Source of the DNA: an uncultured delta proteobacterium
Lineage (GTDB): Bacteria; Desulfobacterota; Binatia; UBA9968
Direction of reading: 5' to 3'
Assembly: GCA_963755715.1 (NCBI GenBank)
Contig: CAVWLW010000056.1
Location: 69,454-133,453 of the forward strand
DNA: 64,000 bases
The notes under the pieces are model-generated. The model had not been told where the DNA came from and made no database searches. It saw nothing but the letters and a program-made list of their open reading frames with translations. Positions 40,327 through 63,269 of this stretch are shown piece after piece. Position 1 is the first letter of the stretch; each line of letters starts with the position of its first letter. Both the position numbers and the translations under genes were made by a program.

Positions 40327-40449
40327 CGACCGTTTGGTCGAAAGTCGCGACGCTTTCGACGAGCTTTCTGTGATTGCTTTCCTGACGGATTAAAAATCCA
40401 TTCAAAACATTTAGTTTTTTCTTGATACAAGTCGTGGCACAAGGCTTGC
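40327..40449 (+). promoter_or_regulatory. sigma54 promoter with tandem enhancer B1
   Basis: CGACCGTTTGGTCG; TGGCAC-AAGGC-TTGC starts 108 nt later. Confidence 0.8.
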
Positions 40450-40483
40450 GCCTACTTAGCTTCGATAGCCTTAGAGAAGCTAT

Positions 40484-40633
40484 ATGCTCGCAACTATTTT
40501 GATCATCGTCATGATTTTGCTGCAGACGGGTGCATTGTCACTTGGCCTCATGGCCATTCCCCGGTTTGCAGCCGCGGCGAGCTTGAAGCGCAAATCGGCT
40601 CTACTTAACAAACGTATCCGGGAACGGCCCTAA
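40484..40633 (+). pseudogene. Degenerate DUF3309-like membrane peptide
   Basis: MLATILIIVMILLQTGAL, then TWPH in a shifted frame. Confidence 0.45.
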
Positions 40634-40665
40634 AGGCGCCGGCTCCGGGAACAGGGAGGTGCTTT

Positions 40666-40863
40666 ATGCCTTTAGTTCAACTCGTAGTGATCTTGATCGT
40701 AATTGGTGTTCTCCTCGGGATGGTTAATCGCTACATACCGATGGCGGGATCGATTAAGTCGATCTTGAATGGGGTTGTGGTCATTAGCGTAGTTCTGTGG
40801 CTTCTAAATGTTTTTGGACTTTTCACCTCAATCTCAGCGATCCATGTCGGGAAGTTATCTTGA
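40666..40863 (+). CDS. Small membrane protein (Thivi_2564-like)
   Basis: NRYIPMAGSIKSILN; GGGAGG RBS. Confidence 0.75.
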   Translation: MPLVQLVVILIVIGVLLGMVNRYIPMAGSIKSILNGVVVISVVLWLLNVFGLFTSISAIHVGKLS

Positions 40864-40952
40864 CTCAGCGCGAGCGGCGCATAGTTGCGGCGAAAAGGAG
40901 TCGCGATGAGCTTCCAACGTACATGAAGAATTAGAGACCATAGAGTACAGCT

Positions 40953-43379
40953 ATGTTGTATTGGTCGCTGATGTTTCTTCTTGTTGCTCTAACCGCCGGC
41001 CTGCTGGTCATTGCTTTCACTGCGGCCGGCGCGCGAAAGATTTTGCCGGGGCCCAATCCACACCCCCGCTGGGACTCGGAGACTCATAATTCAACTTTGT
41101 TCAGACGAATGCGAGTGAGTGCTCTGGCGGCTCGGAGAATCCGTAGTACCCGCTTCGCCGTTCCACATTGGCGGAGACGCGTCCTTAACCTTGCAATTTG
41201 CACAACGCCGATTATAGCCGCTCTCGTGTCAATCGGGTTTTATCACGTCTATTTCGACCGAAGTGATTTGCCTGACATAGAAGCATTCGCCCGCTTTGAG
41301 TTTCCTACCATCGGCACCGTCTACGATGCCAACGGCCAGCCGCTCATGGAACTGGCAAAAGAGTACCGAAAGATCGTCAAATATGAGGACATCCCGCCGA
41401 TTGTTCGCGATGCAATCCTCGCCACCGAAGATAAACACTTCTTCTCACATAGCGGCGTTGACTATTCGGTAATTCCTCGCGTGCTGGGCAAAGTCAGGAT
41501 TCGAGCTCTGGCGGCACGCCTCGTAGGACTCGGACAGCAAGACGAAAATGAAAGTCCGGCGCTTCTCCCGCAAGGCGGATCGACGATCACTCAACAGCTC
41601 GTGCGGGGACATTTTCTCAAAAACCTAACGACGAAAGAAAACAGCAACGAGCTCCGCTATGCCGGACTCTTTCCTCGCTCGCTGTCAAGCCTGGTCGGCG
41701 CGCGCAGTGTCAACATGCTGGTTCGCAAGCTGGAGGAGATTCGCCTGTCGTTGTGGATCGAAGAAGAGATGCAGAAGCGTTTCGGTTCGAAACGCAACGC
41801 TAAGGAGGAAATTCTCGCCCGCTACGCCAGTTTCATTTACATGGGAAATGGTCAATACGGATTCCCGACGGCAGCCGAATACTATTTTGGCCGGTCTCTC
41901 GCCACGTTCACCGCCGATGACGCCGACAAGGCAGCGCTGCTCGCAGGCATCGCGAAGTCGCCGCGTTACTACGCCCCCAATGCGAAGGACAGCTCAAGGG
42001 TGTTGCGCCGCAGAAATCAAACACTGGCGCTTATGGCGGCAAACGGTTTCATTCCCCAGGACAATGTGAATTCAGCCGAGCAGCGCCCGCTTCAAGTGAT
42101 CGCGCCGCGCAAAGACAAGATGTTTCAGGCGCCCGCGGTCCTTGGAACTATCCTTCAAGGGCTCAGAGGCCGTGGCGACCGCAGCGTTGAAGATCTTCTG
42201 CAGGGACGTATCCAGGTTTACTCGACGGTGGATCTCCGGGTGCAGCAAATTGCCAACGAGGCGCTCGAGCGCGGCCTCGAGCTTTACGAGAAACGACACC
42301 CGGGCGCCAAAGGGATAATCCAAGGCTCTGTCGTTGTGCTACGGAACCGCGATGCGAGCATTCTCGCCGAAACTGGCGGTCGTCAGTTTTACCAGGACCG
42401 CTCCGCCGCATACAGCGACTTTAACCGCGTCATCAAGTCCCTGCGGCAACCTGGGTCAACGATGAAACCTATGGTCTATCTTGCGGCGTTTCGACAGGGT
42501 GGCGTTAATCTGGAAACCATGGTCCCCGACGAAGCGATCGGTGTTCCGGATGCAGAGAAACAGAGTACAAAATGGATCTCAAACTATGATGATCAATTCC
42601 GAGGCATGATTCCGGTCCGCGAGGCGCTCGCGGAATCCAGAAACACCGTCGCGATTTGGCTAACAGAGCAGATCGGGATCGGCAGTGTTTTGCGAACATC
42701 GCAAACGTTAGGGATCCAGACACGGTTGCAGCCCTACCCCACAACGGCGTTGGGCGCGTCCGAAGTGAATTTGCTGGAGCTGGCCAATGCGTACCGCACC
42801 ATGGCATCGGGGATGTCCGCCGAGCCGTATGTGATCCGAAAAATCGTTAGCGATTCGGGCGAGGTGGTAGCCGACAACGAACACGCGGGGACCCCGGTCG
42901 ATGTCGACGACTCCGCGCTTGCGCTCATTCAGGAAGGCCTTCGCGGTGTCGTGCGTATGCCCACCGGCACGGCTCATACGCTTGACTCGAGCGTTTTCCC
43001 ACTCGCGGTCATGGGCAAGACGGGGACGACAAACGAGTTCAGAGATGCGCTCTTTGTCGGCTCGACCTTCGGCCTCGAGGGAATCACCGTCGCCGTTCGT
43101 ATAGGCTTCGACGACAACCGTTCCCTTGGAACGACAGAGACCGGCGGCCGGGTCGCGCTGCCGGTGTTTAAAGAACTCATGCTCAGAGTGTATCGCGAAA
43201 AGCTGGTAGGCCCAGCGCCGACATTCCCGGCGCAAATGGAACAGAACATTAATGATTATCTGGCAGGCGGCTCGATCGCGAAGGGCGAATCCGTAACTGT
43301 ACTTAACCCTTCAAATCCGCCCGCGCCGTTTTCGGTCCGCTTCACGGATCGTGGCGAAGCGATTCAAGAACGGCCGTAG
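40953..43379 (+). CDS. Class A penicillin-binding protein (transglycosylase/transpeptidase) with DUF1328-like N-terminus
   Basis: EDKHFFSHSGVD, GGSTITQQL, RKLEE, STMK, SRN, KTGT. Confidence 0.9.
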   Translation: MLYWSLMFLLVALTAGLLVIAFTAAGARKILPGPNPHPRWDSETHNSTLFRRMRVSALAARRIRSTRFAVPHWRRRVLNLAICTTPIIAALVSIGFYHVYFDRSDLPDIEAFARFEFPTIGTVYDANGQPLMELAKEYRKIVKYEDIPPIVRDAILATEDKHFFSHSGVDYSVIPRVLGKVRIRALAARLVGLGQQDENESPALLPQGGSTITQQLVRGHFLKNLTTKENSNELRYAGLFPRSLSSLVGARSVNMLVRKLEEIRLSLWIEEEMQKRFGSKRNAKEEILARYASFIYMGNGQYGFPTAAEYYFGRSLATFTADDADKAALLAGIAKSPRYYAPNAKDSSRVLRRRNQTLALMAANGFIPQDNVNSAEQRPLQVIAPRKDKMFQAPAVLGTILQGLRGRGDRSVEDLLQGRIQVYSTVDLRVQQIANEALERGLELYEKRHPGAKGIIQGSVVVLRNRDASILAETGGRQFYQDRSAAYSDFNRVIKSLRQPGSTMKPMVYLAAFRQGGVNLETMVPDEAIGVPDAEKQSTKWISNYDDQFRGMIPVREALAESRNTVAIWLTEQIGIGSVLRTSQTLGIQTRLQPYPTTALGASEVNLLELANAYRTMASGMSAEPYVIRKIVSDSGEVVADNEHAGTPVDVDDSALALIQEGLRGVVRMPTGTAHTLDSSVFPLAVMGKTGTTNEFRDALFVGSTFGLEGITVAVRIGFDDNRSLGTTETGGRVALPVFKELMLRVYREKLVGPAPTFPAQMEQNINDYLAGGSIAKGESVTVLNPSNPPAPFSVRFTDRGEAIQERP

Positions 43380-43917: not shown

Positions 43918-44041
43918 CGACTCTTTGGTCGAAAGTTTCGACGCTTCCGACGAGACTTTAATGATTTTCTTTTTCACATCTTAAGAAATCCATAGGTAAA
44001 TTCAGTCTTTCACTCACAACGCGGTACGGCACAAAAGTTGC
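43918..44041 (+). promoter_or_regulatory. sigma54 promoter with tandem enhancer B2
   Basis: CGACTCTTTGGTCG; CGGCAC-AAAAG-TTGC starts 109 nt later. Confidence 0.78.
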
Positions 44042-44097
44042 CCTTTAAAATTCTATCTAGTCTATGGGTCGCGACCGCACAGACAGAGAGGGTTTTC

Positions 44098-44280
44098 ATG
44101 TACGCAATCATTTGGCTTGTACTGATAGGAGTTGTCGGTTGGTCGATAGGAAACATGGCAGGACAACACCAATACGCGCAGATCTTAGGGGCTGAGCCTA
44201 GCGCGATTGAGATCACACTGGGAATTGCTGTCACCACTGTCGGCTGTCATCTATTCTTACACACTTCTTCGACTCGATGA
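44098..44280 (+). CDS. Small membrane protein (GlsB/YeaQ-like, degenerate)
   Basis: IIWLVLIGVVGWSIG...ITLGIA; GAGGG RBS. Confidence 0.5.
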   Translation: MYAIIWLVLIGVVGWSIGNMAGQHQYAQILGAEPSAIEITLGIAVTTVGCHLFLHTSSTR

Positions 44281-44364
44281 CTGAATAGTCCGCTCACGGC
44301 GAATGAGCGCAAGCTGGTCGATCGCGCTCGCGGGAGCAGAAAAACAAAGATTATTCGTAGATAT

Positions 44365-44407
44365 CGTCTGGTATTGAACAGCAACTTATTTCAACCTGAC
44401 CGATAAT
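44365..44407 (+). promoter_or_regulatory. Crp-type palindrome promoter A8 (csbD)
   Basis: CGTCTGGTATTGAACA-N21-GATAAT. Confidence 0.62.
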
Positions 44408-44476
44408 TGAAAAATCATAATCAACATAATAACCCGATCCTTGAGTAAGGATCCGAACACTTAAAAGGAGACAATT

Positions 44477-44689
44477 ATGTGGAACAAAGATGAGATCAAA
44501 GGTAAGGGCAAGCAGATTTCTGGGGCGATCAAGGACAAGACTGGGGAATTGATCAAGGATCCTAAACTCGAAGCCAAAGGGGAAGCAGAACGCGTAGCAG
44601 GTAAAATTCAGGAGAAGAGCGGAAAAGCGCGCCGTAAAACCAGTGAAGCGGTACAAAAGCTCGGCAAAGTGATTGCCGGCAAAATTTAG
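44477..44689 (+). CDS. CsbD family general stress protein
   Basis: NKDEIKGK...GAIKDKTG...LEAKG...GKIQ. Confidence 0.88.
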   Translation: MWNKDEIKGKGKQISGAIKDKTGELIKDPKLEAKGEAERVAGKIQEKSGKARRKTSEAVQKLGKVIAGKI

Positions 44690-44871
44690 TCTACGATTCT
44701 TTTGAAACGCCCTGCCCCAGATTGCTCCGGTGGCAGGCGAAAAAATTTTAGTCGCCTGTGTGGCGCCGTAGGGAATTCGTTACCGTTTGTAACGGTCACT
44801 TCGGCTTGGCCATCGGCGACAAGGATTGTGAGAAGTGCGAGTTCTAATCGGACAATGGGAGAAATATTCTA

Positions 44872-45291
44872 ATGGAAAACCAAGACAAAATACTCAAAAT
44901 GCTCAATGACGCTCTAGCTCAGGAACACGCATGTCAGATTCGTTATCTTACCCATGCAGCGGTCATTACCGGGCCGTATGCGGAAGCGGTGGCTGCTCGA
45001 CTCAAGGAAATAGCCGAAGACGAAAAGACTCATGCAATTCAGTTGCGCGACCGAATCACCGCTTTAGCTGGAACTCCGACGATGGAGATTGCCACCAAAG
45101 ATCTCATTCCGGCCACGACCTTGAAAGATATTTTGCGGGTGAACATCGCCGAGGAAGAAGCAGCTATTAAAATGTACCGGTCGATACTTGATTCGGTCGG
45201 ACATGACGGCACAATTCTTTATGAAACCATTGAAGATATCGTTAAAGATGAACAGCAACACAAAGAAGAATTACAGCGCTTACAAGAATAA
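44872..45291 (+). CDS. Ferritin-like (bacterioferritin/Dps-like) protein
   Basis: Two ExxH motifs (EKTH, EQQH), EEEAAIKMY. Confidence 0.82.
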   Translation: MENQDKILKMLNDALAQEHACQIRYLTHAAVITGPYAEAVAARLKEIAEDEKTHAIQLRDRITALAGTPTMEIATKDLIPATTLKDILRVNIAEEEAAIKMYRSILDSVGHDGTILYETIEDIVKDEQQHKEELQRLQE

Positions 45292-45430
45292 CTTCAACAC
45301 AGTGTTTTTCGTGTCGTCACTTGACCGCGAGTCGAAGCAGGCCCCGGGTCTGCTTCGATCTCTATTCCGGCTGGGTTACTAGCCGCCCGGTAATGAGCAG
45401 CCGATCTGAAGCCCGAAAGAAGATGGCACC

Positions 45431-45853
45431 ATGATTTATTCTTCATCGCCTTTTTCCCGCTTCGCCAAATGGACGGCACGAGCCACGGGCCATCCGGCGG
45501 CATTCATGGCTGCGGCTTCGATCGTCGTGGTCTGGGGGGTCACAGGCCCGATATTCAAGTTCAGCGATACTTGGCAATTGGTCATCAACACAGGCACGAC
45601 GATCGTCACATTCCTGATGGTATTTTTGATTCAGAATACCCAGAACCGCGATAGCCACGCCGTCCAACTCAAACTCGACGAGCTGATTCGCGCGGTGAGC
45701 GGCGCGCACAATGCCTTACTCGACCTCGAAGGCCTTGAAGAAGCCGATCTCGAGCGGTTTCGCGTGCGCTATGAAGAGCTCGCGCGCACTGCACGCGAAG
45801 CGCTAGGGCGCGGCGAATTGGACACCGACACTCCGGAAGTCAGGCCGGATTAG
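45431..45853 (+). CDS. Low-affinity iron permease family protein
   Basis: WQLVINTGTTIVTFLMVFLIQNTQNRD. Confidence 0.9.
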   Translation: MIYSSSPFSRFAKWTARATGHPAAFMAAASIVVVWGVTGPIFKFSDTWQLVINTGTTIVTFLMVFLIQNTQNRDSHAVQLKLDELIRAVSGAHNALLDLEGLEEADLERFRVRYEELARTAREALGRGELDTDTPEVRPD

Positions 45854-45893
45854 ATCACGCCGATTCGTTAACCGCCGTTCTCTAATCAATCTT

Positions 45894-46017
45894 CGACCTT
45901 TTGGTCGAGCGATTCGACCGCCGCGACGGTTCTTTTATCCTTGTTTCTCTAAAGCCCGAAAGAAGCAGTCGGAAACTACAGCCTTTTTCGAACAACAAGT
46001 TCTGGCACACAACCTGC
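45894..46017 (+). promoter_or_regulatory. sigma54 promoter with tandem enhancer B3
   Basis: CGACCTTTTGGTCG; TGGCAC-ACAAC-CTGC starts 109 nt later. Confidence 0.8.
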
Positions 46018-46061
46018 TCCTACACAGTTAAGATATAGATAACCCAAATAAAGGAGAGACT

Positions 46062-46142
46062 ATGGACACTCTATTGATCGTTATTTTACTGGTGCTTTTG
46101 TTCGGTGGTGGGGGCTGGGGATATTCTCGTTGGCGCCGGTAG
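46062..46142 (+). CDS. 26-aa membrane micropeptide MDTLLIVILLVLLFGGGGWGYSRWRR (DUF3309-like)
   Basis: AAGGAG RBS; identical copy at 52022. Confidence 0.75.
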   Translation: MDTLLIVILLVLLFGGGGWGYSRWRR

Positions 46143-46247
46143 CGAGAGTTCATTGATCCGGCTCTCAGTGTGGCTAACGTTGTAACGCAAATCGGGAGAG
46201 CACAAATCACGTCGCAACAAAACGCGGCGAAGAAAGGAGAAACTGAC

Positions 46248-46322
46248 ATGAACAGTATTTTCTACATAGTTGGTGTTATTGTCGTAGTGGTTTTCGTCGC
46301 CGGCTTTTTCGGACTGAGGTAG
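46248..46322 (+). CDS. 24-aa membrane micropeptide MNSIFYIVGVIVVVVFVAGFFGLR
   Basis: AAAGGAG RBS; paralog at 63591 differs mostly at synonymous sites. Confidence 0.75.
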   Translation: MNSIFYIVGVIVVVVFVAGFFGLR

Positions 46323-46366
46323 CCCCGGAGCCTCACGAGGGACTTTCCCGATATTTTTTTCAAACC

Positions 46367-46409
46367 TGTCTAATACTGGACGGCAATCCCTGGCGAGTCA
46401 GCATAAGTT
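46367..46409 (+). promoter_or_regulatory. Crp-type palindrome promoter A9
   Basis: TGTCTAATACTGGACG-N21-TAAGTT. Confidence 0.75.
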
Positions 46410-46462
46410 TCAAATCATTCTGGGCATAGGGTTTCACTCCTGACGTTAACCGAGGAGTTGAA

Positions 46463-46691
46463 ATGGAAAGAGTTATTTTGGCTCTAGCGTTCTTGATCGT
46501 TCTCGGTCAAAGCGGTTGTGCGTTCTTGGGCGGAGCGGCGTTAGGCGCCCTGGGCACAAGCGCAGGTTACGAAATTAACGCCAAGAGTAAGATGGACCAG
46601 CTCGAGGATGATTACAAAGCCGAGAGAATATCCCGTAGAGAATACGAAGGCTCGTAAGTCGCAGATAGAAAAAGGCTCCATCATTTATTAG
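46463..46691 (+). CDS. Small lipoprotein, frameshift near 46650
   Basis: Lipobox QSGC, Gly-zipper; corrected end RKSQIEKGSIIY. Confidence 0.65.
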
Positions 46692-46731
46692 GAGAAATCT
46701 AAATTTCAAAGAAAAGGCACGGAGGTGATTT

Positions 46732-47043
46732 ATGATACGGGCATTCAAAAGGTTAACAGTGACTTTGGCACTTCTGTTCTTCATGACCGGCTGCCAAGCA
46801 ATGACCGGTGAAACCGCGGGGCAGAACATCGATGACGGCACCCTTACGACATCTGTGAAGTCCTCACTCGCGGGAGAGCGGCTTAACACCCTGACACGTG
46901 TGGGCGTCGAGACCAACAACGGCATTGTGTACCTTACCGGCGAAGTCGAGACCGCCGCGGAGAAGTCGCGCGCTGGAACGGTTGCCGGGCAGGTAAAGGG
47001 CGTCAAACAGGTAGTCAACAACCTGCAAGTCATCAAGCGTTAG
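46732..47043 (+). CDS. BON-domain lipoprotein
   Basis: Lipobox, IDDGTLTTSVKSSL, VYLTGEV, GVKQVVNNLQV. Confidence 0.9.
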   Translation: MIRAFKRLTVTLALLFFMTGCQAMTGETAGQNIDDGTLTTSVKSSLAGERLNTLTRVGVETNNGIVYLTGEVETAAEKSRAGTVAGQVKGVKQVVNNLQVIKR

Positions 47044-47240
47044 AGGCTGACTGTTCCAACGGCCAAAAAGCAGGGCTATCGGGAACCGAGAAAATCTGGG
47101 GGCTAAGAATTTCGACAGCAGGCTTTCTAGAAGAATATTCCAAATTGTGTTGATCAGTGCTCTGGTGGTGCTCGGGATCCCTCGCTCGGCGGTATCGAGT
47201 GGATTAGCCATTTTGGCTCCAAAAACGGAGGAAAAATATT

Positions 47241-47471
47241 ATGCGTAGCAATCCGATAACGCTTGTTGGAATCGCTCTCATCATCCTTGGGATAGTGGCC
47301 TTTGCCTACCAAGGCATCACCTATACCAGCCGCGAAAAGATTATCGATATCGGCCCCATCCAAGCCACCGCCGACACCCAGAAGAGCATTCCGCTCTCAC
47401 CTCTCTTGGGGGGATTGGTGCTTGTAGGGGGGATCGCTTTGGTTGTGGTTGGAGCCAAGACATCGTCTTAG
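47241..47471 (+). CDS. DUF3185-like small membrane protein, copy 1
   Basis: YQGITYTSREKIIDIGPIQA. Confidence 0.8.
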   Translation: MRSNPITLVGIALIILGIVAFAYQGITYTSREKIIDIGPIQATADTQKSIPLSPLLGGLVLVGGIALVVVGAKTSS

Positions 47472-47674
47472 TGCGTCTGAGGGTTGCCTGCCACGGGCAA
47501 TGTCGCGGCCCAATGATCGTGGATCAATTTCTAAAAAATTGGATAGGGGGAAATTGACATGGCGAGCTTGGTTTTGATGCTTGTCGCGATTTGAGCTGGG
47601 AATACAGATGATCAGGGGACGAATCTGATCGTCGACTTCCTCCACGGCCGCGGCTCTCGTCCCTAACGTTTAAT

Positions 47675-47862
47675 GGTGTACCCGAGTACACGATCGATGT
47701 CATCCCGCACGGGATTTCGAGCGTGCCGTTCGCGTCAAGCAATGAGAAAGAACTCGGGATCGAAGGCAAGTCGGTGACTTTTACATTCGGACTGCTGTCG
47801 CCGGACAAAGGTATCGAGCATGTCATCGACGCGCTGCCCGTAATTCTTGCCCGCTATCCGGA
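47675..47862 (+). pseudogene. Internal fragment of the GT4 glycosyltransferase
   Basis: Near-identical to 55500-55690 (ELGIEGKSV.FTFGLLSPDKGIEHVIDALP). Confidence 0.85.
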
Positions 47863-48000
47863 TCGATTGACCGTGCTGACAAAAATGACCGGCTCAAACG
47901 GCAGGCCAAGTGATTGGTGCGCCAGAGATTAAACCGAATTAAATGTTTTTCTCAGTGGGGACACTAACTCGGATCGAACTAAAGCGGCAAGATTTACTCT

Positions 48001-48050
48001 ATGAACAAACTCTCTCTATCAAACGGAGCAAATGAATCATCCGTATACCC
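48001..48050 (+). pseudogene. 5' remnant of the superoxide dismutase gene
   Basis: atgaacaaactc...tatcaaacgg...atccgtataccc matches 56350-56401; upstream leader also homologous. Confidence 0.7.
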
Positions 48051-48225
48051 CGCGCGCTACGTCCGCATGATGCGCCGGGCAATGTAGGAGGGCTCCACAG
48101 GACACGGAAAGCCATGAGGGTGAGGTATTGCGCGCAGAGTCCGATGAGGAAGAAGGGCTAAAGGAAATTAATCATATTGGGTACATTAACGACGAAGGCC
48201 GATTAAGGAAAAAGAAGGGAAGAAA

Positions 48226-54544: not shown

Positions 54545-54577
54545 TCATTTGGGTTAAAAAACGAAGGAATAAACACG

Positions 54578-54808: not shown

Positions 54809-54901
54809 CGGCGCTTGGGGGGAGGCAGCACAGCATCGCAAATGTCGTGGCGAAAATGACTCGCGGATCATTTCTAATAAGTTGGTTAGGAGGAAATTGA
54901 T

Positions 54902-54982: not shown

Positions 54983-55010
54983 TCGTAGGCTTCTCCGGGT
55001 GGGAGGAATC

Positions 55011-56231
55011 ATGAACCACGGAACCATTGCGGGAAGGGTTGGTCGAATCGCGATCCTCGGCAATCATTTGCCGCGGCAGTGCGGCATCGCTACTTTCACC
55101 ACCGATCTCAGCGGCGCGGTCGCCGCGGAGTTCTCGAATGCCGATTGCTTCGTGGTCGCGATGAACGACGCCGGCAAACATTATGCGTATCCACCGCGGG
55201 TCCGTTTCGAGGTGGCAGATAGTGATATCGCGTCATACCGCGTCGCCGCGGATTATTTGAACGCTAACAAGATCGATGTCGTGTCCGTGCAGCACGAGTA
55301 CGGTATTTTCGGTGGCAACGCCGGTAACTACCTGCTCACGCTGCTGCGCAAATTGCGCATGCCGATCGTGACCACCATTCACACCATCCTCGGCGAGCCG
55401 GATTCCATGCAGCGTCGGGCGATGAACGAGATCGCCCGACTTTCGAAGCGGCTCGTCGTCATGAGCGCCCACGGCGCCGCTCTCCTCCATAATGTTCACG
55501 GTGTACCCGAGCACAAGATCGATATCATCCCGCACGGGATTCCGAGCGTGCCGTTCGCATCAAACAGTAAGAAAGAACTCGGGATCGAAGGCAAGTCGGT
55601 GATTTTTACATTCGGACTGCTATCGCCGGACAAAGGTATCGAGCATGTCATCGACGCGCTGCCCGTGATTCTTGCGCGCCACCCCGACACGGTCTACGTC
55701 GTGCTCGGAGCTACCCATCCACATATCAAAGAGCAGTACGGCGAGAGCTACCGGGAGAGCCTAGAGCGCCGTGCCCAAGGACTCGGCGTGGAATCCAGCG
55801 TGATCTTTCACAATCGTTTCGTGAGCCGCGGCGAACTCGTCAAGTTTCTTTCGGCGGCTGACATCTATGTGACGCCGTACCTCAAGCCGGAGCAGAGCAC
55901 GTCCGGGACGTTGGCCTACGCGGTAGGATCCGGCAAAGCCGTCATCTCGACGCCTTATCTTTATGCGCGCGAGCTCCTCGCTGACGGGCGCGGTATACTC
56001 GTGCCGTGGCGAGACTCCCAGACCATCGCACGCGAGGTCGTGGATCTCCTAAGCGATGATGCAAAACGATTGGCCCTCTGCGCACGCGCCGCCGCTCACG
56101 GCCGCAGCATGGTCTGGCCCGCGGTCGCGCGCCGCTACCTGCAGAGCTTCGACCAGGCATGCAGTCGAGGGCAATCAGTGCCTCGGGTTAGCCGGGAACT
56201 ACCGGTTCGAGCTCATCATGTCTCAACGTAG
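55011..56231 (+). CDS. Glycosyltransferase family 4 (paralog of the N-terminal half of 21451-23736)
   Basis: PRQCGIATFTTDL, FGLLSPDKGIE, SGTLAY, ISTPY. Confidence 0.9.
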   Translation: MNHGTIAGRVGRIAILGNHLPRQCGIATFTTDLSGAVAAEFSNADCFVVAMNDAGKHYAYPPRVRFEVADSDIASYRVAADYLNANKIDVVSVQHEYGIFGGNAGNYLLTLLRKLRMPIVTTIHTILGEPDSMQRRAMNEIARLSKRLVVMSAHGAALLHNVHGVPEHKIDIIPHGIPSVPFASNSKKELGIEGKSVIFTFGLLSPDKGIEHVIDALPVILARHPDTVYVVLGATHPHIKEQYGESYRESLERRAQGLGVESSVIFHNRFVSRGELVKFLSAADIYVTPYLKPEQSTSGTLAYAVGSGKAVISTPYLYARELLADGRGILVPWRDSQTIAREVVDLLSDDAKRLALCARAAAHGRSMVWPAVARRYLQSFDQACSRGQSVPRVSRELPVRAHHVST

Positions 56232-56349
56232 GGGGACGTGGCGAGGCGCGCCGACGTAACAGGAGACAGACATTGGAGAGTCGCCGACTTTTTTGTCAGT
56301 CGGGAAACTAACTCGGATCAGCTAAAGCGACACACAGGAGGTTTACGCC

Positions 56350-57003
56350 ATGAACAAACTCTTGCTCTATCAAACGGCGCATATGGATTATCCGTATACC
56401 CTGCCGCCGCTCGATTATGCGTATGATGCGCTCGAGCCGCACATCGACGAACAAACGATGCATTTGCATCATGACAAGCATCATCAGGCTTACACCGATC
56501 ACGCCAACGAAGCGGTCGGAAAATATCCTGAGCTGCAAAAAACAGATCTGGTGACCCTATTGGCTCATCTTAACGAGTTGCCTGCCGATATCAGGGCGCC
56601 ATTGCAAAGCAACGGCGGTGGCCATCTAAATCACGCGTTATTCTGGGAATATCTGACACCAGGAGGTGGCGGTGAACCTCAGGGCAAGCTGGCACAGGCG
56701 ATTACAAAGACGTTTGGCGGATTCGCTCAATTTAAAGAAGGGTTTGATGCCGCTGCCAAAAATCGCTCGGGCAGCGGGTGGGCGTGGCTTTCCGTGACGT
56801 CCACCGGCGACTTGGAGATTGGCTCAACAGCGAACCAGAATAATCCGTTATCAAACGGCCAGCTGCCAATTTTAGGTCTCGATGTGTGGGAACATGCGTA
56901 TTATCTCAAGTACCACAACAAGCGACCCGAATACATTACCCATTGGTGGCACGTGGTGAACTGGAAGAAAGTCCAGGAACAGTTCGAGAACATCACAGGT
57001 TAG
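56350..57003 (+). CDS. sodA: Superoxide dismutase (Mn/Fe, Mn-type signatures)
   Basis: HHDKHHQAY, NGGGHLNH, DVWEHAYY. Confidence 0.9.
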   Translation: MNKLLLYQTAHMDYPYTLPPLDYAYDALEPHIDEQTMHLHHDKHHQAYTDHANEAVGKYPELQKTDLVTLLAHLNELPADIRAPLQSNGGGHLNHALFWEYLTPGGGGEPQGKLAQAITKTFGGFAQFKEGFDAAAKNRSGSGWAWLSVTSTGDLEIGSTANQNNPLSNGQLPILGLDVWEHAYYLKYHNKRPEYITHWWHVVNWKKVQEQFENITG

Positions 57004-57059
57004 CAGGTCGAAAAAACGAGCGACGATCGACCGCATTTTTGAGTGAAAGGATAATCGCC

Positions 57060-57269
57060 GTGAAAACAAATCGTAGCGATAACCGGATCGACACTACGCC
57101 GTTGGGAGAGCTTATGGCAACCGTCAGCGAGTTCGCCTTTGAATATTCCGCCGACACAAGAGAGGCCTATGATCTCGCCCGTCTGATTTTAGTTGAGTTG
57201 CTGAACGGGGCTTCCCTCGAAAGGGGAATCACCGACCGGCACTTTCCCGGAACTGTGCTACTGCATTGA
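57060..57269 (+). CDS. Hypothetical protein, paralog of 40079-40300
   Basis: LGELMATVSEFAFEY...DRHFP; AAGGA RBS, GTG start. Confidence 0.65.
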   Translation: MKTNRSDNRIDTTPLGELMATVSEFAFEYSADTREAYDLARLILVELLNGASLERGITDRHFPGTVLLH

Positions 57270-57324
57270 TAGGTTTGAACGGGTCAATATGGAGAGTCTA
57301 ATCAGCATAATTCTTTTAGCACTT

Positions 57325-57366
57325 TGTCCAAGAATGAACTGTGAGTCTTCTAGGAAGACGTATTCT
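57325..57366 (+). promoter_or_regulatory. Crp-type palindrome promoter A11 (divergent copy)
   Basis: TGTCCAAGAATGAACT-N20-TATTCT. Confidence 0.5.
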
Positions 57367-57461
57367 ATTAGAAGTAACGGCATCGAGGTTTAGCAACTCG
57401 TAGAAATAATCATATTACGCTTTATCTCAAATTTACATGCCCGAACACCAGGAGGAGTACC

Positions 57462-58449
57462 GTGAAAATTAATATCTTAGATCGGATGGTGATGGCCCTC
57501 GTCATCGCCACCCTGTCATTGGCGGGGATCAGCATAGCGGCCGATGGGCAGCGAGAACCGCAGGAAGAGCAAAAAGAGCAAAAGCGCGATCCGCATGAAA
57601 AGCAGCAGGAACAAAAGCAGCAAAAGCAAGAAGAGCGCGTTCAAAAAAAATCAGAGCAGGACCAGAAGCAACAGCAACATCGCGTTGAGCAGCAACAACA
57701 GCAGCAAGACCAAAAGCAGAAACAAAAGCAGCAGGAGCGCGTGCAGCAAAAATCAGATCAGGACCAGAAACAACAGCAACAACGGGTTCAGCAAGCAACA
57801 GCAGCAGCAGAGGCAAGACCAAAATCAGCAACAAAAACAACAACAGCGTTTGTCACAGCAGCAGCAACAAAAGCTGATTAGTCAGCAACAACAACGTGTG
57901 GTGCAATACCGTCAGCATCTGGAACAGCAGGATCGTCTCGCACAACAGAATGCAGCACAGCTGCAGCAACAAAAGCGTGTAGCGCAGTATCGTTTTCAGG
58001 AACAGTATTTAGATCGCGTACGTCAGCAGCAGATCCACCTCCGGGACGATCGGTTCGATTACGATCGTGACCCGTATTTCTTTACGCCTCCGATCTATCG
58101 ATACAATCGTGGCGGCCACTACTATGAAACGAACGAATACGGTGCGAAGACGCTGCGGCAGGCGGTGAACTATGGCTACGAAGAAGGCTTCCGCGCCGGA
58201 AAGGCAGACCGGGACGACCGTTGGGGTTCCAACTACAAAGACTCTTATGCCTACAGGGACGCAAACTTCGGCTACAGTGGCTATTACGTAGACCGGAGCG
58301 ACTACAACTACTACTTCCGTGAGGGTTTCCGTCGCGGCTATGAAGATGGCTACAACAGCCGCTATCAATATGGTCGCTTCACTAGTGGAAACTATTCCAT
58401 CTTGGATACCATTTTGTCACAAATCCTCAATTTCCAGGCTCTGCGCTAA
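57462..58449 (+). CDS. Secreted Gln-rich protein with Tyr/Gly-rich C-terminal repeats, frameshift near 57794
   Basis: Signal peptide, Q/K/E repeats, GYEEGFRAG and FREGFRRGYEDGY; AGGAGG RBS. Confidence 0.75.
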
Positions 58450-58611
58450 AGACCCAGAGGATGGAGCGCTGAACAAGCGCCTGGCTACTCATGAGAAACG
58501 TGAGCGGAGCCAGGCGCTTTTGGTCATTGCCCTGGTGGTGCCAGTGATTACTCTCGTTCAGGGACGAAGAATATACTAGCCGTTTCGGCTTTTAACGAAG
58601 GAAGGAATTTT

Positions 58612-58842
58612 ATGGCTATCAATTCGATAACGCTTGTTGGGATCGCTCTCATCGTGTTAGGGGTCGTGGCTCTTGCGTACCAGGGCATCACCTACACAAG
58701 CCGCGAGACGGTGATCGATATTGGCCCCATCCATGCCACCGCCGACACCCAGAAGACCATCCCGCTTTCCCCTCTACTGGGCGGGTTGGCGCTTGCAGGC
58801 GGGATCGTCTTGGTCGTGGTTGGAGCCAAGAAATCGTCTTAG
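58612..58842 (+). CDS. DUF3185-like small membrane protein, copy 3
   Basis: YQGITYTSRETVIDIGPIHA; preceded by an lmo0937-like 3' remnant. Confidence 0.8.
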   Translation: MAINSITLVGIALIVLGVVALAYQGITYTSRETVIDIGPIHATADTQKTIPLSPLLGGLALAGGIVLVVVGAKKSS

Positions 58843-58920
58843 GGCCACTGAGAGTCCCCCCTTACATACGGGTCCATGCCCGCTATCGGCGCTCTTCGCG
58901 CTTTGAGAACCAGGATAATC

Positions 58921-59072
58921 GGAAAGCCTGGGTGCGGAAGGAATCGCAAGTAGAGTTTGATGAGGGGAAACAGGACGTGGCTCTACGGACGATCCTAACG
59001 GGCGCGAAGTCGGAAACGATCGATACCGCCAAGGATCGACCTAGCGAATGATGCGCCTGCTCTCCACTCTAC
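58921..59072 (+). mobile_element. Group II intron 3'-end remnant (degenerate domain V plus domain VI)
   Basis: GAAAGCC...TGCG...CGCA...GTTTGATGAGGGG, then CGGAAACG/GCCAAGG and a 3' CTCTAC; no RT ORF. Confidence 0.62.
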
Positions 59073-59117
59073 TTACGTCTATCTCTTAGCAGGCTAATCG
59101 ACCCTATTCTGATCGGA

Positions 59118-59240
59118 TCATTTAACAACGAGCGAAAAGGATGTGTTCTCTTTCTTAGCCCTTTTCGCGGCTCTTTTTTCCATCAAGGTCTTCAGTGGCT
59201 TCTTCTTGTTTTGTTTCTTGCTGTCTTTACCTTTGCTCAT
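59118..59240 (-). CDS. 40-aa Lys-rich basic microprotein MSKGKDSKKQNKKKPLKTLMEKRAAKRAKK...
   Basis: GAGG RBS; downstream of promoter A12. Confidence 0.7.
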   Translation of the reverse strand: MSKGKDSKKQNKKKPLKTLMEKRAAKRAKKENTSFSLVVK

Positions 59241-59306
59241 GATTGTTAATCCTCATAGCCGAGTTGATAGTTTAGAACACGCAGTTTTTAGTTCACTTTA
59301 AACTTC

Positions 59307-59349
59307 ATGCTGCGCCGGATCGACTACCGTTGCTGTCCAATATTGAACA
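59307..59349 (-). promoter_or_regulatory. Crp-type palindrome promoter A12
   Basis: TGTTCAATATTGGACA-N21-CAGCAT on the minus strand. Confidence 0.72.
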
Positions 59350-59546
59350 ATCTCGAAAATAAATATTGCGACGCCGCGGCGGGCGGGTCAACGCAAGTCA
59401 TGCGGATGAGCGAGACGTATACACTGCGGGAACGGAGTGAAGCATCGTCGCAAAGAAAGGGTGGTGGGGTCATAGTGTGTTGCTGACCCGATATTATGCT
59501 CTGTCGAATCACTTGTAAAAAGACACCGTAATCATAATATGAAGCG

Positions 59547-59723
59547 ATGAATGTTAACATTTGGAAATTGGAATGCCGGAGTTGCCATGCAACTTTCGAG
59601 GTTGAAACTAAACGGGATACGCTCACTAAAGATATTAGAATGATGACCTGTCCTAACTGCCAGGCGAAACCGGAAACCGAAAACCAGTATCAAGTAACCG
59701 GTTTTCGCAACACTGAACGTTGA
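59547..59723 (+). CDS. 58-aa zinc-ribbon microprotein
   Basis: CRSC...CPNC. Confidence 0.6.
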   Translation: MNVNIWKLECRSCHATFEVETKRDTLTKDIRMMTCPNCQAKPETENQYQVTGFRNTER

Positions 59724-59727
59724 ACCC

Positions 59728-59976
59728 ATGCCACGCAAGCGCGACGAAAACGAAACGGCCTTCGATACCCTTCAAGAAATTCTCAGACGCGATGCCGAGC
59801 GAGACGGCATTCCGGTGTCACCGAAGCCCAAGCCGGAAAAGATGGCTGTTAGGGTGAAGGCGGGACGGAAGGGCGGGAAGATCGGGGGAAGCGGTGATTG
59901 GGTCCTCATATGCCGAATAGCCATCTATCCAACAAACCCCTTACAACGGTCATTTTTTCGAAATACAATTGGGTGA
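59728..59976 (+). CDS. Small basic hypothetical protein (GRKGGKIGG), probably truncated
   Basis: The KGG motif is followed by sequence that looks unrelated. Confidence 0.4.
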   Translation: MPRKRDENETAFDTLQEILRRDAERDGIPVSPKPKPEKMAVRVKAGRKGGKIGGSGDWVLICRIAIYPTNPLQRSFFRNTIG

Positions 59977-59978
59977 TC

Positions 59979-60155
59979 ATGGTATATCGAAGGCTGAAAG
60001 ACTCCCTAGATTTGGACTGGCATTTTCATACTAAATGCCCGAGTTGGCCAGAACTCGGCGTAATTGACGTACAGCTTAACAGCCCTGGTAGTGATCGCAT
60101 CTGTCCAGAATGCATAGAATTGGATGCCACAATGCCCACTGAAAAACCCCACTGA
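59979..60155 (+). CDS. Small His/Cys zinc-binding-like protein
   Basis: WHFHTKCPSWP...ICPEC. Confidence 0.5.
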   Translation: MVYRRLKDSLDLDWHFHTKCPSWPELGVIDVQLNSPGSDRICPECIELDATMPTEKPH

Positions 60156-60311
60156 CGATTCAGCAACACATTAATACCCGACTACCAAAGAAAAAGGAAT
60201 GTCGCTCGCGCGGTTCCGCTCGCCGCACGCTGATAACCCGCGTGATCTGTTCATCCTAGTGTCTCCTGTACGGGAGGCGTTGTTCCATAGCACAAGGCAT
60301 TCTCTGTAATT

Positions 60312-60435
60312 CGACCATTTGGTCGATCGTTTCGACTCTTTCGCCGATCCGTCCCTCCGTTTCCCTCCGGCGCGTTAAATAATCTCCAGCAATATGCGGT
60401 ACCTACCTGATCGTGAGCACTGGCACGTAAGCTGC
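60312..60435 (+). promoter_or_regulatory. sigma54 promoter with tandem enhancer B6 (DUF3309-crp)
   Basis: CGACCATTTGGTCG; TGGCAC-GTAAG-CTGC starts 109 nt later. Confidence 0.8.
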
Positions 60436-60483
60436 TCCTTTTTACTCACTGGGAAAAGAAGAATTGAAGGAAGGTGACTGACT

Positions 60484-60633
60484 ATGAGCCTGATACTGTT
60501 GATCTTATTAGTTCTATTTCTGGTGGGAGGTCTGCCTAACTGGGGTTATCACAGGTTTGGCTTTGCACCCTCGGGCATCGCCGGTGTGGTGCTGCTAATC
60601 GTTGTTGCTCTGCTCTTGACCGGCCGGCTCTAA
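60484..60633 (+). CDS. DUF3309 family small membrane protein (49 aa)
   Basis: GGLPNWGYHRFGFAPSG...LLLTGRL. Confidence 0.8.
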   Translation: MSLILLILLVLFLVGGLPNWGYHRFGFAPSGIAGVVLLIVVALLLTGRL

Positions 60634-60749
60634 ACGGGTCGCAACATGCGCATAAGGTTAGAGTAATTTAAGGCATAGGGTTTCATTCCTGAGGTTGCAA
60701 AGTGGTTGCGCGTTCTTGGGCGGCGCGCATCGGGTTTGGGTGTGAACCG

Positions 60750-61430
60750 ATGATTCAACAGACTCCCGAAGCGGAACGCTTCAAACAGCAAATGCGCGAT
60801 TCGTTGCAGCACGAGACGCTGAACTCTCGCGCCGTGACGATCGCGCGGCACGCGAATGTTTACACCTGCGGCGACCAGGACGAGATGGTCTATTTCATCG
60901 AGACCGGCCAGATCAAACTGCTTCTGCTCTCGCCCGAAGGTAAAGAATGTCTGCTGGCCATCCATAGCGGTGGAGATATTTTCGGCGAGCTGTGTTTAGC
61001 CGGGTTGGGCGCACGTCACGAAACCGCCGTGGCAATGAAACAAACGAAGATAAAACAAATACCCTGTGCCCAGTTCTTTGCGCGTCTGAGCCGCGACTCT
61101 TTGTCTGAGGGATTTGTACGCTACCTGGCGGTGCGCATCGCCGACCAACAGCACGTCATCGCCAATCTGGTGACGGCGGACAGCGAACAGCGGCTGGGCC
61201 AAACGTTGTTACAATTGGCCCGCACCATGGGCAAGAAGGACCCGCGCAGCATCCGCATCGAGCTGAAGATTTCCCATGATGAATTATCCTCGATGGTAGG
61301 CACGACGCGGCCTCGGATCAGCTTTTTCATGCAGAGATTTCGCAACCTGGGATTGATCGAAACCAATAGCGATCATTTTCTCATCATCAAAGAAAACAAA
61401 CTCACCGATTACCTCGCGCAGATCGCTTAG
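60750..61430 (+). CDS. Crp/Fnr family transcriptional regulator
   Basis: cNMP-like domain (GDIFGE, RHETA), HTH SHDELSSMVGTTRPRISFF. Confidence 0.92.
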   Translation: MIQQTPEAERFKQQMRDSLQHETLNSRAVTIARHANVYTCGDQDEMVYFIETGQIKLLLLSPEGKECLLAIHSGGDIFGELCLAGLGARHETAVAMKQTKIKQIPCAQFFARLSRDSLSEGFVRYLAVRIADQQHVIANLVTADSEQRLGQTLLQLARTMGKKDPRSIRIELKISHDELSSMVGTTRPRISFFMQRFRNLGLIETNSDHFLIIKENKLTDYLAQIA

Positions 61431-61563
61431 AAAGGCCGTGCCGCCCAACCCAGTCGGCATTTACTTGCAACAAATCCTGCCGCGTTCCTATGTTTTAATA
61501 GTCAGGAAAAAAGAGGTTTTCGGGAAGAATCCAATTTAAAGAAGTAATCAAGGAGACATACCG

Positions 61564-61737
61564 ATGTCATTTGGAATTTACCTCGTCGGATACATCATAC
61601 TGATCGCGGGCCTGGCAATCGGAGCCAATCTGCTCCACGTGCCGATGCAGTGGATCGGGGTGGGCAGTCTGTGTTTGGCCGGCGTGGCGATCGTCCATGG
61701 CGTGACGGCAACTCGGCAAAAGGATCCACAGTCCTAG
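61564..61737 (+). CDS. 57-aa two-TM membrane microprotein
   Basis: MSFGIYLVGYIILIAGLAIGANLLHVP...TRQKDP; AAGGAG RBS. Confidence 0.72.
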   Translation: MSFGIYLVGYIILIAGLAIGANLLHVPMQWIGVGSLCLAGVAIVHGVTATRQKDPQS

Positions 61738-61891
61738 AGGACAGCATCTCTCGTGCCGGCGTTACCACGAACAGCGCGAGGTTAGCCTCTTCTCCGGCTA
61801 GAGTAGGAGGACGCGCTGATGATTCAGCCGCCGGCTTTTCTGCCGCAGCAACAGCCTGCGACTGATCGCAATCGAATGCATGTGTCGTTTT

Positions 61892-62437
61892 CTATTGGCC
61901 CGATGGCAGTTCGAGTCGAACCGTGGCGGTGCCCGATTCTATCATATCCAAAGCTTTTGCCGCCGCCTCCGATAGATCGATGATACGATTTCCTGCAGCG
62001 GGTCCGCGATCGGTAATCTCTACTTCCACCGATTTTCCGTTGGCGAGATTAGTAACCTTGATCTTGCTACCGAACGGTAGGCTTGGATGTGCGGCTGTAA
62101 GCCCCGCTTGATCATAAATTGTTCCACTGGCCGTCTGCTTCCCTTGATGTTGCGCTCCATACCACGAAGCTTCCCCGGTTTGTGGCAACTTCGCAGGCAC
62201 AGCGGGATTTTTTTTAGCCGTCGGTGGAACGGGCGCAGGCTGGACACCGCTTGAAGTGTTGGGAGCGGCAGGTTGCGCCGGAGTTTCGGCCGGCGCGGCG
62301 ATATCCGACGGACGTTGCAGCAATGCGCAGCCCTGAAAAAGCACTAGACCTAAACACATCGTTAATAGGCACGGACGCCTGTCGGATAAACCGCGGACCA
62401 CGAATTTAAGCAGCGAAAAAGATAAATCATTCGCCAT
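61892..62437 (-). CDS. rlpA: RlpA-like lytic transglycosylase lipoprotein
   Basis: GEASWYG, TASG, TAAHPSLPFGS, DRGP, IIDLS. Confidence 0.85.
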   Translation of the reverse strand: MANDLSFSLLKFVVRGLSDRRPCLLTMCLGLVLFQGCALLQRPSDIAAPAETPAQPAAPNTSSGVQPAPVPPTAKKNPAVPAKLPQTGEASWYGAQHQGKQTASGTIYDQAGLTAAHPSLPFGSKIKVTNLANGKSVEVEITDRGPAAGNRIIDLSEAAAKALDMIESGTATVRLELPSGQ

Positions 62438-62603
62438 CTGTAATAGTTCCTCTCCGACTAGCTACGTTTGCTCTTTGCAATGATTAGAGAATTTCCAACA
62501 CGTAGTATGGCATTTCGCCATACTTAACAAGGGAAACACTCGGAGGTCGAAAGCAAAAACCCCTGTGCCCGCCTGCGCCCTTCGCAATAAATATTTTCGG
62601 CAT

Positions 62604-62646
62604 TGTTCAGTATTAGACAGCATCACCCGCCGAGTGAGCGCACGAT
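62604..62646 (+). promoter_or_regulatory. Crp-type palindrome promoter A13 (LapA-like)
   Basis: TGTTCAGTATTAGACA-N21-CACGAT. Confidence 0.72.
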
Positions 62647-62714
62647 GAACATCGGTAGACTCTGATGAATCAACCTCAGAGTACGGTTGGCCAAAGAAAG
62701 AAGGTTATAAAAAT

Positions 62715-63065
62715 ATGTTGGTATTACTTGTTGCAGTTATTTCCGGCGTCGCGATCGCTTACTTTGGAATGCAAAACATTAGCCCGGTTACGATCCGGCT
62801 CAATGACTATGTCTGGAATGATGTCCCCTTGTATCTGGTTATCGTGGGGTCGTTGTTTGTGGGACTTTTCATGGCGTGGATTCTCTATTTTGCTAGGTCG
62901 GTTTCCTCCACGCTCACCATCTATGGAAAAGATCGAGCGATGAAAAAAGCCAAACATACGGTAGCCGGTCTGGAACAGCGGGTCCACGAACTCGAAGTGG
63001 AAAAGGCGGGACTCAAGACCACAGTCCCTTCTCCGTCTGAAATTCCGCACCATACATTGTCCTAA
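62715..63065 (+). CDS. LapA/DUF1049 family membrane protein
   Basis: FGMQNISPVTI, VPLYLVIVGSLFVG, coiled-coil tail. Confidence 0.8.
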   Translation: MLVLLVAVISGVAIAYFGMQNISPVTIRLNDYVWNDVPLYLVIVGSLFVGLFMAWILYFARSVSSTLTIYGKDRAMKKAKHTVAGLEQRVHELEVEKAGLKTTVPSPSEIPHHTLS

Positions 63066-63146
63066 TACCAAGGTGGGAAGCGCGCGATTGAGTCGCGCCA
63101 AACTCTCCGGAGAGAAAAACAGTTGGGAGAACTAAATATTCCAGTC

Positions 63147-63269
63147 CGACCTTTTGGTCGATGCGCTCGACGTTCCTGACGAGCCTCATCTTCTTCATCC
63201 TGAACGCCTAAAATAAATCTAAGGGAGATCCAATGGTTTTCTTACCAAAGGGTCTGGCACACAATCTGC
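63147..63269 (+). promoter_or_regulatory. sigma54 promoter with tandem enhancer B7
   Basis: CGACCTTTTGGTCG; TGGCAC-ACAAT-CTGC starts 108 nt later. Confidence 0.8.

Follow-up and report, generated by a model that had tools for sequence, protein, structure and literature searches.

Among the described systems closest to the one analysed here is ZraPSR (HydHG) of E. coli and Salmonella, reported as a kinase and an NtrC-type bacterial enhancer-binding protein (bEBP) that act on sigma-54 promoters, including that of their own operon, and that control a periplasmic envelope-stress protein, with ZraR serving two divergent promoters (PMC4987338). PspF, RtcR, and the Rrp2-RpoN-RpoS pathway of Borrelia likewise belong to sigma-54-dependent stress or adaptive responses (PMC4014564 and PMC4987338). 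The subject of this work is the final 64 kb (64,000 nucleotides; the window) of contig C56 of an uncultured delta proteobacterium (Desulfobacterota, Binatia, UBA9968; assembly GCA_963755715.1, here G000; 7.41 Mb, 76 contigs), in which seven sites, B1-B7, numbered along the + strand, each combine a tandem enhancer with a −24/−12 promoter. We propose, with a probability of about 75%, that B1-B7 are sigma-54 promoters with tandem activator sites, that they belong to a regulon of nine promoters, and that their cognate activator is an NtrC-type regulator encoded on another contig, C14, which positively regulates its own operon.

Like ZraPSR, the C14 locus holds a kinase and an NtrC-type activator, with the operon itself behind the same promoter type. 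Unlike ZraR with its two divergent promoters, the present system has nine co-oriented promoters with a CGACC-N4-GGTCG site; it further differs from ZraPSR by a periplasmic Cache sensor, by an OmpA-like upstream gene in place of zraP, and by the breadth of its stress genes. ZraS is the best NCBIfam match of the C14 kinase (260 bits against an equivalog cut-off of 479), followed by AtoS (232 against 646), while the best-scoring named family for the regulator is AtoC (528 against 714), followed by ZraR (445 against 760). Judged by these profile scores, the C14 pair is an equivalog of neither ZraSR nor AtoSC. Its predicted targets also set it apart from AtoSC and NtrBC, being stress proteins and not genes of acetoacetate or nitrogen metabolism.

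Sigma-54 systems are usually described for one or a few operons with a narrow task; PspF and RtcR, which lack a receiver domain, serve one or two. In the present genome, a large number of stress-effector operons appear to be under the direct control of one activator. In the Borrelia pathway, sigma-54 acts on one promoter, that of rpoS, and RpoS runs the regulon, whereas in our genome predicted sigma-54 promoters stand directly on many effector operons. CsbD, BON/OsmY, entericidin, YtxH, and similar proteins are typical members of sigma-S, sigma-B, and EcfG regulons, and the content of the present set overlaps strongly with those regulons in CsbD, BON/OsmY, entericidin, YtxH, DUF3309, ferritin/Dps-like proteins, superoxide dismutase (SOD), and PRC-barrel proteins. 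Unlike them, −24/−12 promoters need an ATPase activator, and control here is predicted to be exerted by a two-component system as opposed to a sigma-70-family factor with partner switching or proteolysis. The promoters are of another class than those served by a dedicated sigma-70-family factor, and the resemblance is one of gene content only. Searches of open-access papers and preprints turned up no account of a regulon in which CsbD, BON, or entericidin genes are under sigma-54/bEBP control. The mechanism itself is textbook; the scale of the regulon, its content, its expansion, and the constraint on spacing are the new part.

The sequence-only reading of the window had described seven dyads, each followed by a weaker second dyad and, at a nearly constant distance, by a sigma-54-type promoter, and all of this was reproduced. 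The tandem enhancers lie on the + strand at 40327-40362 (B1; nhmmer E 2.7e-10), 43918-43953 (B2), 45894-45929 (B3), 51859-51894 (B4), 52868-52903 (B5), 60312-60347 (B6), and 63147-63182 (B7), and were assigned by pattern, alignment, and nhmmer or, for B4, a recent duplicate of B3, by pattern, alignment, and comparison of the duplicates. With each palindrome scored once per strand, CGAC-N4-6-GGTCG has 15 matches in the window, where 2.13 ± 1.52 would be expected, and none of 100 shuffled windows reached that number. The −24/−12 elements (YGGCAC-N5-NTGC, same strand) occupy 40435-40449, 44027-44041, 46003-46017, 51968-51982, 52976-52990, 60421-60435, and 63255-63269 in B1-B7, respectively, and thus begin 108, 109, 109, 109, 108, 109, and 108 nt from the dyad starts; that of B1 reads TGGCAC-N5-TTGC, with a predicted transcription start at ~40460. 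For B2-B7, the corresponding predictions are ~44052, 46028, 51993, 53001, 60446, and 63280. GG at −24, GC at −12, and the fixed 10-nt separation expected of a sigma-54 promoter are present at all seven, with 0-1 mismatch. Matches to TGGCAC-N5-TTGC with up to two mismatches are not enriched across the window (60 against 63.9 expected); with at most one mismatch there are nine, and seven of these are the B1-B7 promoters. GGCAC-N6-TGC occurs eight times in the window (both strands), seven times at B1-B7, and 229 times in the 7.4 Mb genome.

In an alignment of the seven sites, CGAC at +21 and CG at +33/34, which make up the weaker second dyad, are invariant, as are CGAC..TTTGGTCGA, GGCAC, and TGC. 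When half-sites are considered, both dyads read TCGAC-N6-G(T/a)CGA, and because their centres are 21 bp apart, they lie on one face of the helix. The centres fall ~127 and ~106 bp before the predicted transcription starts, which are themselves 24-68 nt ahead of the first start codons; a purine-rich stretch precedes most of the latter. Sites for bEBPs are usually tandem and located about 80-150 bp upstream of −24/−12 promoters, and at glnAp2, tandem NtrC dimer sites ~100-140 bp upstream nucleate an oligomer that loops to sigma-54 RNA polymerase. The predicted tandem dyads, which co-occur with an orthologue of the C14 regulator (see below), fit this arrangement. The claim of sigma-54 promoters with tandem upstream activator sites finds support in motif match, spacing, and conservation.

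B3 and B4 had been read as one recent duplicate, and indeed share 253 bp at 95.7% identity (45892-46144 and 51857-52104), which would be a fresh example of the spread of an enhancer-promoter cassette. The remaining spacers had been said to be diverged in sequence yet constant in length; they measure 71-72 nt and are 47-64% identical in pairwise comparisons (mean 56%; shuffled spacers, 49 ± 2.8%). Within the spacers, 16-46 nt upstream of each −24 GG (e.g., 52930-52960), lies a semi-conserved block, approximately AAnAAtC..GGAAAC..GCCTTTyCC, which contains a GGAAA/TTTCC inverted repeat and is common to paralogous and orthologous promoters. The block may be a site for a bending protein or for a second regulator. 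By eye, matches to the IHF consensus in the spacer are poor (six to seven of nine positions in B1 and B2); the genome has three genes of the HU/IHF family.

The composite motif was then sought in the whole genome, as the sequence-only reading had proposed. CGAC-N6-GTCG occurs 1274 times, and eight of these occurrences have GGCA[CT]-N6-TGC at an offset of 107-110 nt: B1-B7 and a site at position 983 of C14 (L032). An nhmmer model of the 45-nt enhancer (the enhancer profile) returned nine sites at E <= 9e-5, the next best having an E value of 0.14; the ninth is on contig C73 (L033, 5691-5953). When C73 and the next 52 weaker matches were inspected, C73 alone was followed by a good sigma-54-like element. 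The offset of its second dyad is 20 nt, not 21, and a perfect TGGCAT-N5-TTGC, upstream of an 896-amino acid (aa) open reading frame (ORF) resembling glycosyl hydrolases/transferases, lies 248 nt from the enhancer start.

The absence of a bEBP gene from the window, pointed out previously, extends to all of C56, where PF00158 has no match. In the genome as a whole there are 36 PF00158 matches, 31 of them strong, including one at C14:4337-4837. The overlooked activator is most likely this C14 bEBP, predicted to be expressed, beside its kinase, from an eighth promoter of the same kind (GGCAT-N5-TTGC at +107 from enhancer 983). The gene order on C14 is a 195-aa protein, dodecin, enhancer 983, an OmpA-like gene, a Cache-domain histidine kinase (2153-3904), the NtrC-type regulator (3905-5278), and a ferritin-like protein. 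The regulator has the receiver, Sigma54_activat, AAA_lid, and HTH_8 domains of the NtrC family (PF00072, PF00158, PF25601, and PF02954), GAFTGA is visible in its translation, and the closest solved chains are those of NtrC-family regulators and ZraR. Its helix-turn-helix is of the Fis type. No close copy exists elsewhere in the genome, where the nearest paralogue is 49% identical. A search of other genome contigs with the regulator returned only paralogues, at 56% identity or less and from many phyla. The OmpA-like gene is split on C14 (1148-1768 and 1744-2046) and intact, at 297-340 aa, in relatives. A "PepSY-like" label for the N-terminal domain of this first gene of the kinase operon was dropped, as it reflected an impression only and no Pfam match. 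The end of the window is probably contiguous with C14: in the related genome G018, a B7-like unit is followed by an M48 peptidase, homologues of the first genes of C14, and the kinase operon. Since the kinase and regulator stand behind an eighth promoter of the same design, positive autoregulation would follow.

Islands of this kind were retrieved from seven relatives of the same genus (G003, G004, G014, G015, G018, G019, and G020). In same-genus genomes, CGACNNTTTGGTCGANNNNNNCGAC with at most one mismatch forms clustered, co-oriented arrays, while a reversed control pattern gives 0-2 matches per genome. The enhancer profile detected 42 sites in the seven islands, all on a single strand within each genome (11 in G020, eight each in G018 and G015, six in G014, five in G019, and two each in G003 and G004). 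Together with eight sites of our genome (B1-B7 and C14:983), these make a set of 50, in which GG-N9-TGC is found 107-111 nt from the enhancer in 45 cases (at 109 nt in 23, 110 in 14, 108 in four, 111 in three, and 107 in one). In sets of orthologous promoters, offsets are kept, and enhancers are 84-88%, promoters 86-92%, and spacers 65-71% identical, values biased upward, especially for the promoter, because the sets were grouped by downstream gene and partly by the look of the promoter.

Orthologues of the regulator in the relatives share 80-92% identity with it, whereas no other activator exceeds 47%; a second copy (68-69% identical) is present on other contigs of G014 and G015. The orthologue lies inside the motif array in five of five relatives tested, and an enhancer is located ~2.9-3.1 kb upstream of the regulator start in all seven same-genus genomes that carry both on one contig (G004, G014, G015, G018, G019, G020, and G023). 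At the threshold of at least 80% identity used for the genus, no orthologue was found in any of nine genus genomes without a motif match, and the kinase was not found in any of three such genomes tested; in G002, motif sites are present and so is the kinase. Beyond the genus, a single enhancer was found in G331, which belongs to the same family, and in each of two members of another family, G029 and G027; it has GG-N9-TGC at +110/111 and is followed by a secreted protein, a kinase (56-60% identical), and a bEBP (70-73%). The exact pattern was present in two of 401 genomes sampled across the phylum, ours and one of the same family.

The multi-promoter island looks like a within-genus expansion of an older, single autoregulated operon: related genera have one such operon and this genus 9-11 promoters, a difference that points to growth of the regulon through the spread of a length-locked enhancer-promoter cassette. 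The system is accessory in the genus (an orthologue at the 80% threshold in 10 of 30 other genomes), and the island behaves as an accessory region, since both it and the two-component system are patchy within the genus. The GC content of the island (40000-64000) is 49-55%; the genome has 56%, and the first 24 kb of the window have 52-60%. No tRNA genes were found in the window, and an Rfam search of 38000-64000 returned no match. The ESM Atlas neighbours of one island protein come most often from Acidobacteriota and those of another from Pseudomonadota, Actinomycetota, and Verrucomicrobiota, a contradictory picture from which no conclusion was drawn.

The promoters are predicted to depend on rpoN. 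The genome has a single rpoN locus with all three domains (AID, CBD, and DBD), on the minus strand of contig C34 (L031:1483-2971), in the usual order lptB-rpoN-hpf-ptsN. Scored against RpoS, the best of the genome's other sigma factors reaches 293 bits, below the cut-off of 378.7, so that no RpoS equivalog exceeds the threshold. RNA contigs from four libraries of three soil studies cover island genes (e.g., 44819-45385, 46238-47135, and 63350-63776) and are weakly consistent with expression of the island. Contig depth in four runs was low just upstream of B4, B6, and B7 and high behind them; this was not counted, as contig depth is no evidence. DNA of the window was present in soil metagenomes of 10 studies.

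Several observations weigh against our proposal. The coding sequence of rpoN is in two frames (AID in a 212-aa ORF, CBD and DBD in a 352-aa ORF, with an apparent frameshift at ~L031:2480-2540), and if the frameshift is real, the promoters would be dead in this strain. The split is either an assembly error or a pseudogene; assembly indels are likely, because several other genes here (OmpA-like, BrkB, and AI-2E) are also split or truncated, whereas relatives have them intact. At 52568 and 61538, moreover, the RNA contigs from several runs differ by one base. Transcription starts cannot be located from the RNA contigs, which may also include DNA. C14 and the window are on separate contigs, and their linkage rests on the synteny of G018, in which the last 225 nt of the window match a different place. 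The genome encodes 30 other bEBPs. The C73 promoter shows that the fixed enhancer-promoter distance is not absolute, and at five of the 50 sites no canonical promoter stands 107-111 nt away: in one (in G020) it is at +68, in two the −12 element has decayed, and the remaining two are a single repeated promoterless sequence. The latter is an identical stretch of enhancer and downstream DNA on two G015 contigs (C14:84439 and C7:6; L143:8440 and L144:6), without a −24/−12 element at the usual distance; the second copy sits at the very start of its contig, and the repeat is probably an assembly overlap. G025 has an enhancer and, at +101, a promoter, but behind them only the gene for the secreted protein, with no kinase or activator within 10 kb. 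Finally, neither kinase nor activator was found in G003 (88% complete), which has two sites.

These points notwithstanding, a conserved two-component/sigma-54 stress regulon is real in our assessment, and probably autoregulated. According to the proposed mechanism, a stress signal, probably from the envelope or periplasm, would activate the Cache-domain kinase, and the phosphorylated regulator would assemble on both dyads. The DNA would then loop across the length-constrained 71-72 nt spacer, possibly with the help of a bending protein at the semi-conserved block, and ATP hydrolysis would open the sigma-54 closed complex. The predicted output consists of small membrane peptides (DUF3309, entericidin, and others), CsbD, BON/OsmY-like, and YtxH-like proteins, as well as ferritin-like proteins, SOD, PBP1A, a glycosyltransferase, and, perhaps as a second tier, a Crp/Fnr regulator. 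The spacing between enhancer and promoter is unusually strict across dozens of diverged promoters, and most sites (108-111 nt), together with the variants at 68 and 248 nt, offer a natural series for studying the limits of loop length on bEBP action. The system also presents a clear case of regulon growth; it supplies a soil group that is uncultured or little studied with a candidate stress regulator, and many tiny membrane peptides of no family with a regulatory context.

A bolder version holds that a single ZraSR/AtoSC-like activator with its set of sigma-54 promoters is the master switch of the general stress response, and that, within one genus, the cassette spread from one autoregulated operon for envelope stress to 8-11 operons encoding effectors. 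If true, this would add, on an accessory island, a further general-stress architecture to those of sigma-S, sigma-B, and EcfG. The label "general" derives from gene content only, and we regard this version as tentative and rather doubtful. Somewhat better placed, at odds not far below even, is the possibility that the same architecture serves a specialised response to envelope, desiccation, or oxidative stress, comparable to ZraSR, Cpx, or Psp, with the general response left to a sigma-70-family factor. The sensor kinase is of the periplasmic Cache type and is predicted to be co-transcribed with a secreted, OmpA-like, peptidoglycan-binding protein; many products are envelope proteins (BON, entericidin, PBP1A, Mla, M48 peptidase, and Gly-zipper); the ancestral operon of G027 includes a protein that looks HtrA-like by eye; additional sigma factors resembling group 2 are encoded in the genome; and the accessory status of the system within the genus points the same way. 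Against this possibility stand the cytoplasmic hallmarks of a general response in the set, i.e., CsbD, ferritin-like protein, SOD, dodecin, and Crp/Fnr.

The abundance of bEBP genes raises the possibility that another of the ~30 binds the enhancers, the C14 pair being merely a member of the regulon. We consider this improbable, since the one site kept in other genera and in another family is precisely the one before this kinase-activator pair, motif and orthologue of the C14 regulator co-occur across the genus, and no other bEBP is present in the islands examined. A still smaller chance is left for the idea that the island's own Crp/Fnr-family regulator (60702-61430) uses the 5-4-5 dyad as its operator. 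Crp/Fnr-family proteins bind 14-bp palindromes, so that the geometry of the dyad fits, and the gene is conserved behind a B6-type promoter in relatives. However, G029, G027, and G025 have no orthologue of this gene at E <= 1e-10 (G331 has a 22% match), while dyad and promoter are kept, so that the motif tracks the bEBP and not the Crp/Fnr regulator; a tandem site ~127 bp upstream is, moreover, a position of the bEBP type. Last, that the repeats are a mobile element resembling a miniature inverted-repeat transposable element, or an assembly artefact, with no regulatory role, has a negligible probability: despite the recent B3/B4 duplicate and paralogous spacers slightly more alike than shuffled ones, the sites are all co-oriented and always upstream of genes, persist in orthologous positions across species with block-wise conservation, number only nine in the genome, show no terminal inverted repeats beyond the dyad itself, and lack the uniformly similar spacers by which the sequence-only reading would have recognised such an element. 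Comparisons of orthologous sets, in which enhancer and promoter are better conserved than the spacer, and the narrow range of distances in 45 of the 50 sites argue that the architecture is under selection.

The statement that the first gene is always tiny holds for the window, where peptides of 26-60 aa stand behind all seven promoters, but not for the eighth promoter, the first gene of which encodes ~300 aa in relatives. The seven first peptides, each conserved in three to six of the seven related genomes, are DUF3309-like (two identical copies), a full DUF3309, an entericidin-like lipoprotein, a zinc-ribbon peptide, and two hydrophobic peptides. Similarly, of the proposed stress regulon of microproteins, the stress-type content stands (CsbD, BON, entericidin, DUF3309, YtxH, ferritin-like, and SOD), while "microproteins" is too narrow, as the units run on into PBP1A, Fe/Mn SOD, a GT4 glycosyltransferase, a PRC-barrel protein, an AI-2E transporter, and the Crp/Fnr regulator. 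The same families are found downstream of the 42 sites of the relatives, along with M48 peptidase, BrkB, Gly-zipper proteins, MlaE with an ABC ATPase, and dodecin.

All units are on the + strand. The B1 unit (40484-43379) encodes a 49-aa membrane peptide (40484-40633), a 65-aa membrane protein of the Thivi_2564 family (40666-40863), and PBP1A (40953-43379). In the B2 unit (44098-45853), a 60-aa membrane peptide (44098-44280) is followed by CsbD (44477-44689), a ferritin-like protein (44872-45291), and a low-affinity iron permease (45431-45853). The B3 unit (46062-51664) begins with a 26-aa DUF3309-like peptide (46062-46142) and small ORFs and continues with BON (46732-47043), PRC-barrel (48226-48978), a BrkB fragment (49404-49790; 128 aa, compared to 328 aa in G019), and an AI-2E transporter in two overlapping frames (49750-50610 and 50519-51664). 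B4 (52022-52765) has a 26-aa peptide (52022-52102) identical to that of B3 and two conserved proteins of no family, of 91 aa (52269-52544) and 74 aa (52541-52765). The B5 unit and the co-oriented genes that follow it (53043-58449) encode an entericidin-like lipoprotein (53043-53192), BON (within 53444-53980), YtxH-like protein (54027-54329), GT4 glycosyltransferase (54999-56231), Fe/Mn SOD (56350-57003), a 127-aa protein (56886-57269), and a Q-rich 301-aa protein (57544-58449). B6 (60484-61430) comprises DUF3309 (60484-60633) and the Crp/Fnr-family regulator, a pair that stands behind the same promoter type in relatives too, and the first gene of B7 (63348-63488) encodes a 46-aa zinc-ribbon-like peptide that is 93% identical in G018. 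For B3 and B5, the extent of the transcript is putative. Transcription units could not be delimited by a scan of 44001-64000 for terminators and sigma-70 promoters, which gave 32 terminator-like sites (23 ± 4.4 expected) and 14 promoter-like ones (15.9 expected).

Some neighbouring genes are of separate interest. The 301-aa protein (region 57462-58449) has a low-complexity N-terminal half rich in K/S/N/Q and a C-terminal domain rich in Y/G/D/R; it belongs to no family, is 61-69% identical in four relatives, and is overlapped by a 139-aa ORF in another frame. Directly upstream of B1 (36040-39993) are a PAS-GAF-GGDEF diguanylate cyclase and a GAF-HisKA-HATPase-REC hybrid kinase, which may supply additional signalling input to the island. 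Just ahead of B1, the hybrid kinase is followed by a 125-aa protein (39923-40300), a paralogue of the 127-aa protein that overlaps the end of the SOD gene. The two paralogues belong to no family, have a common conserved C-terminal half, and are conserved in the islands of the relatives.

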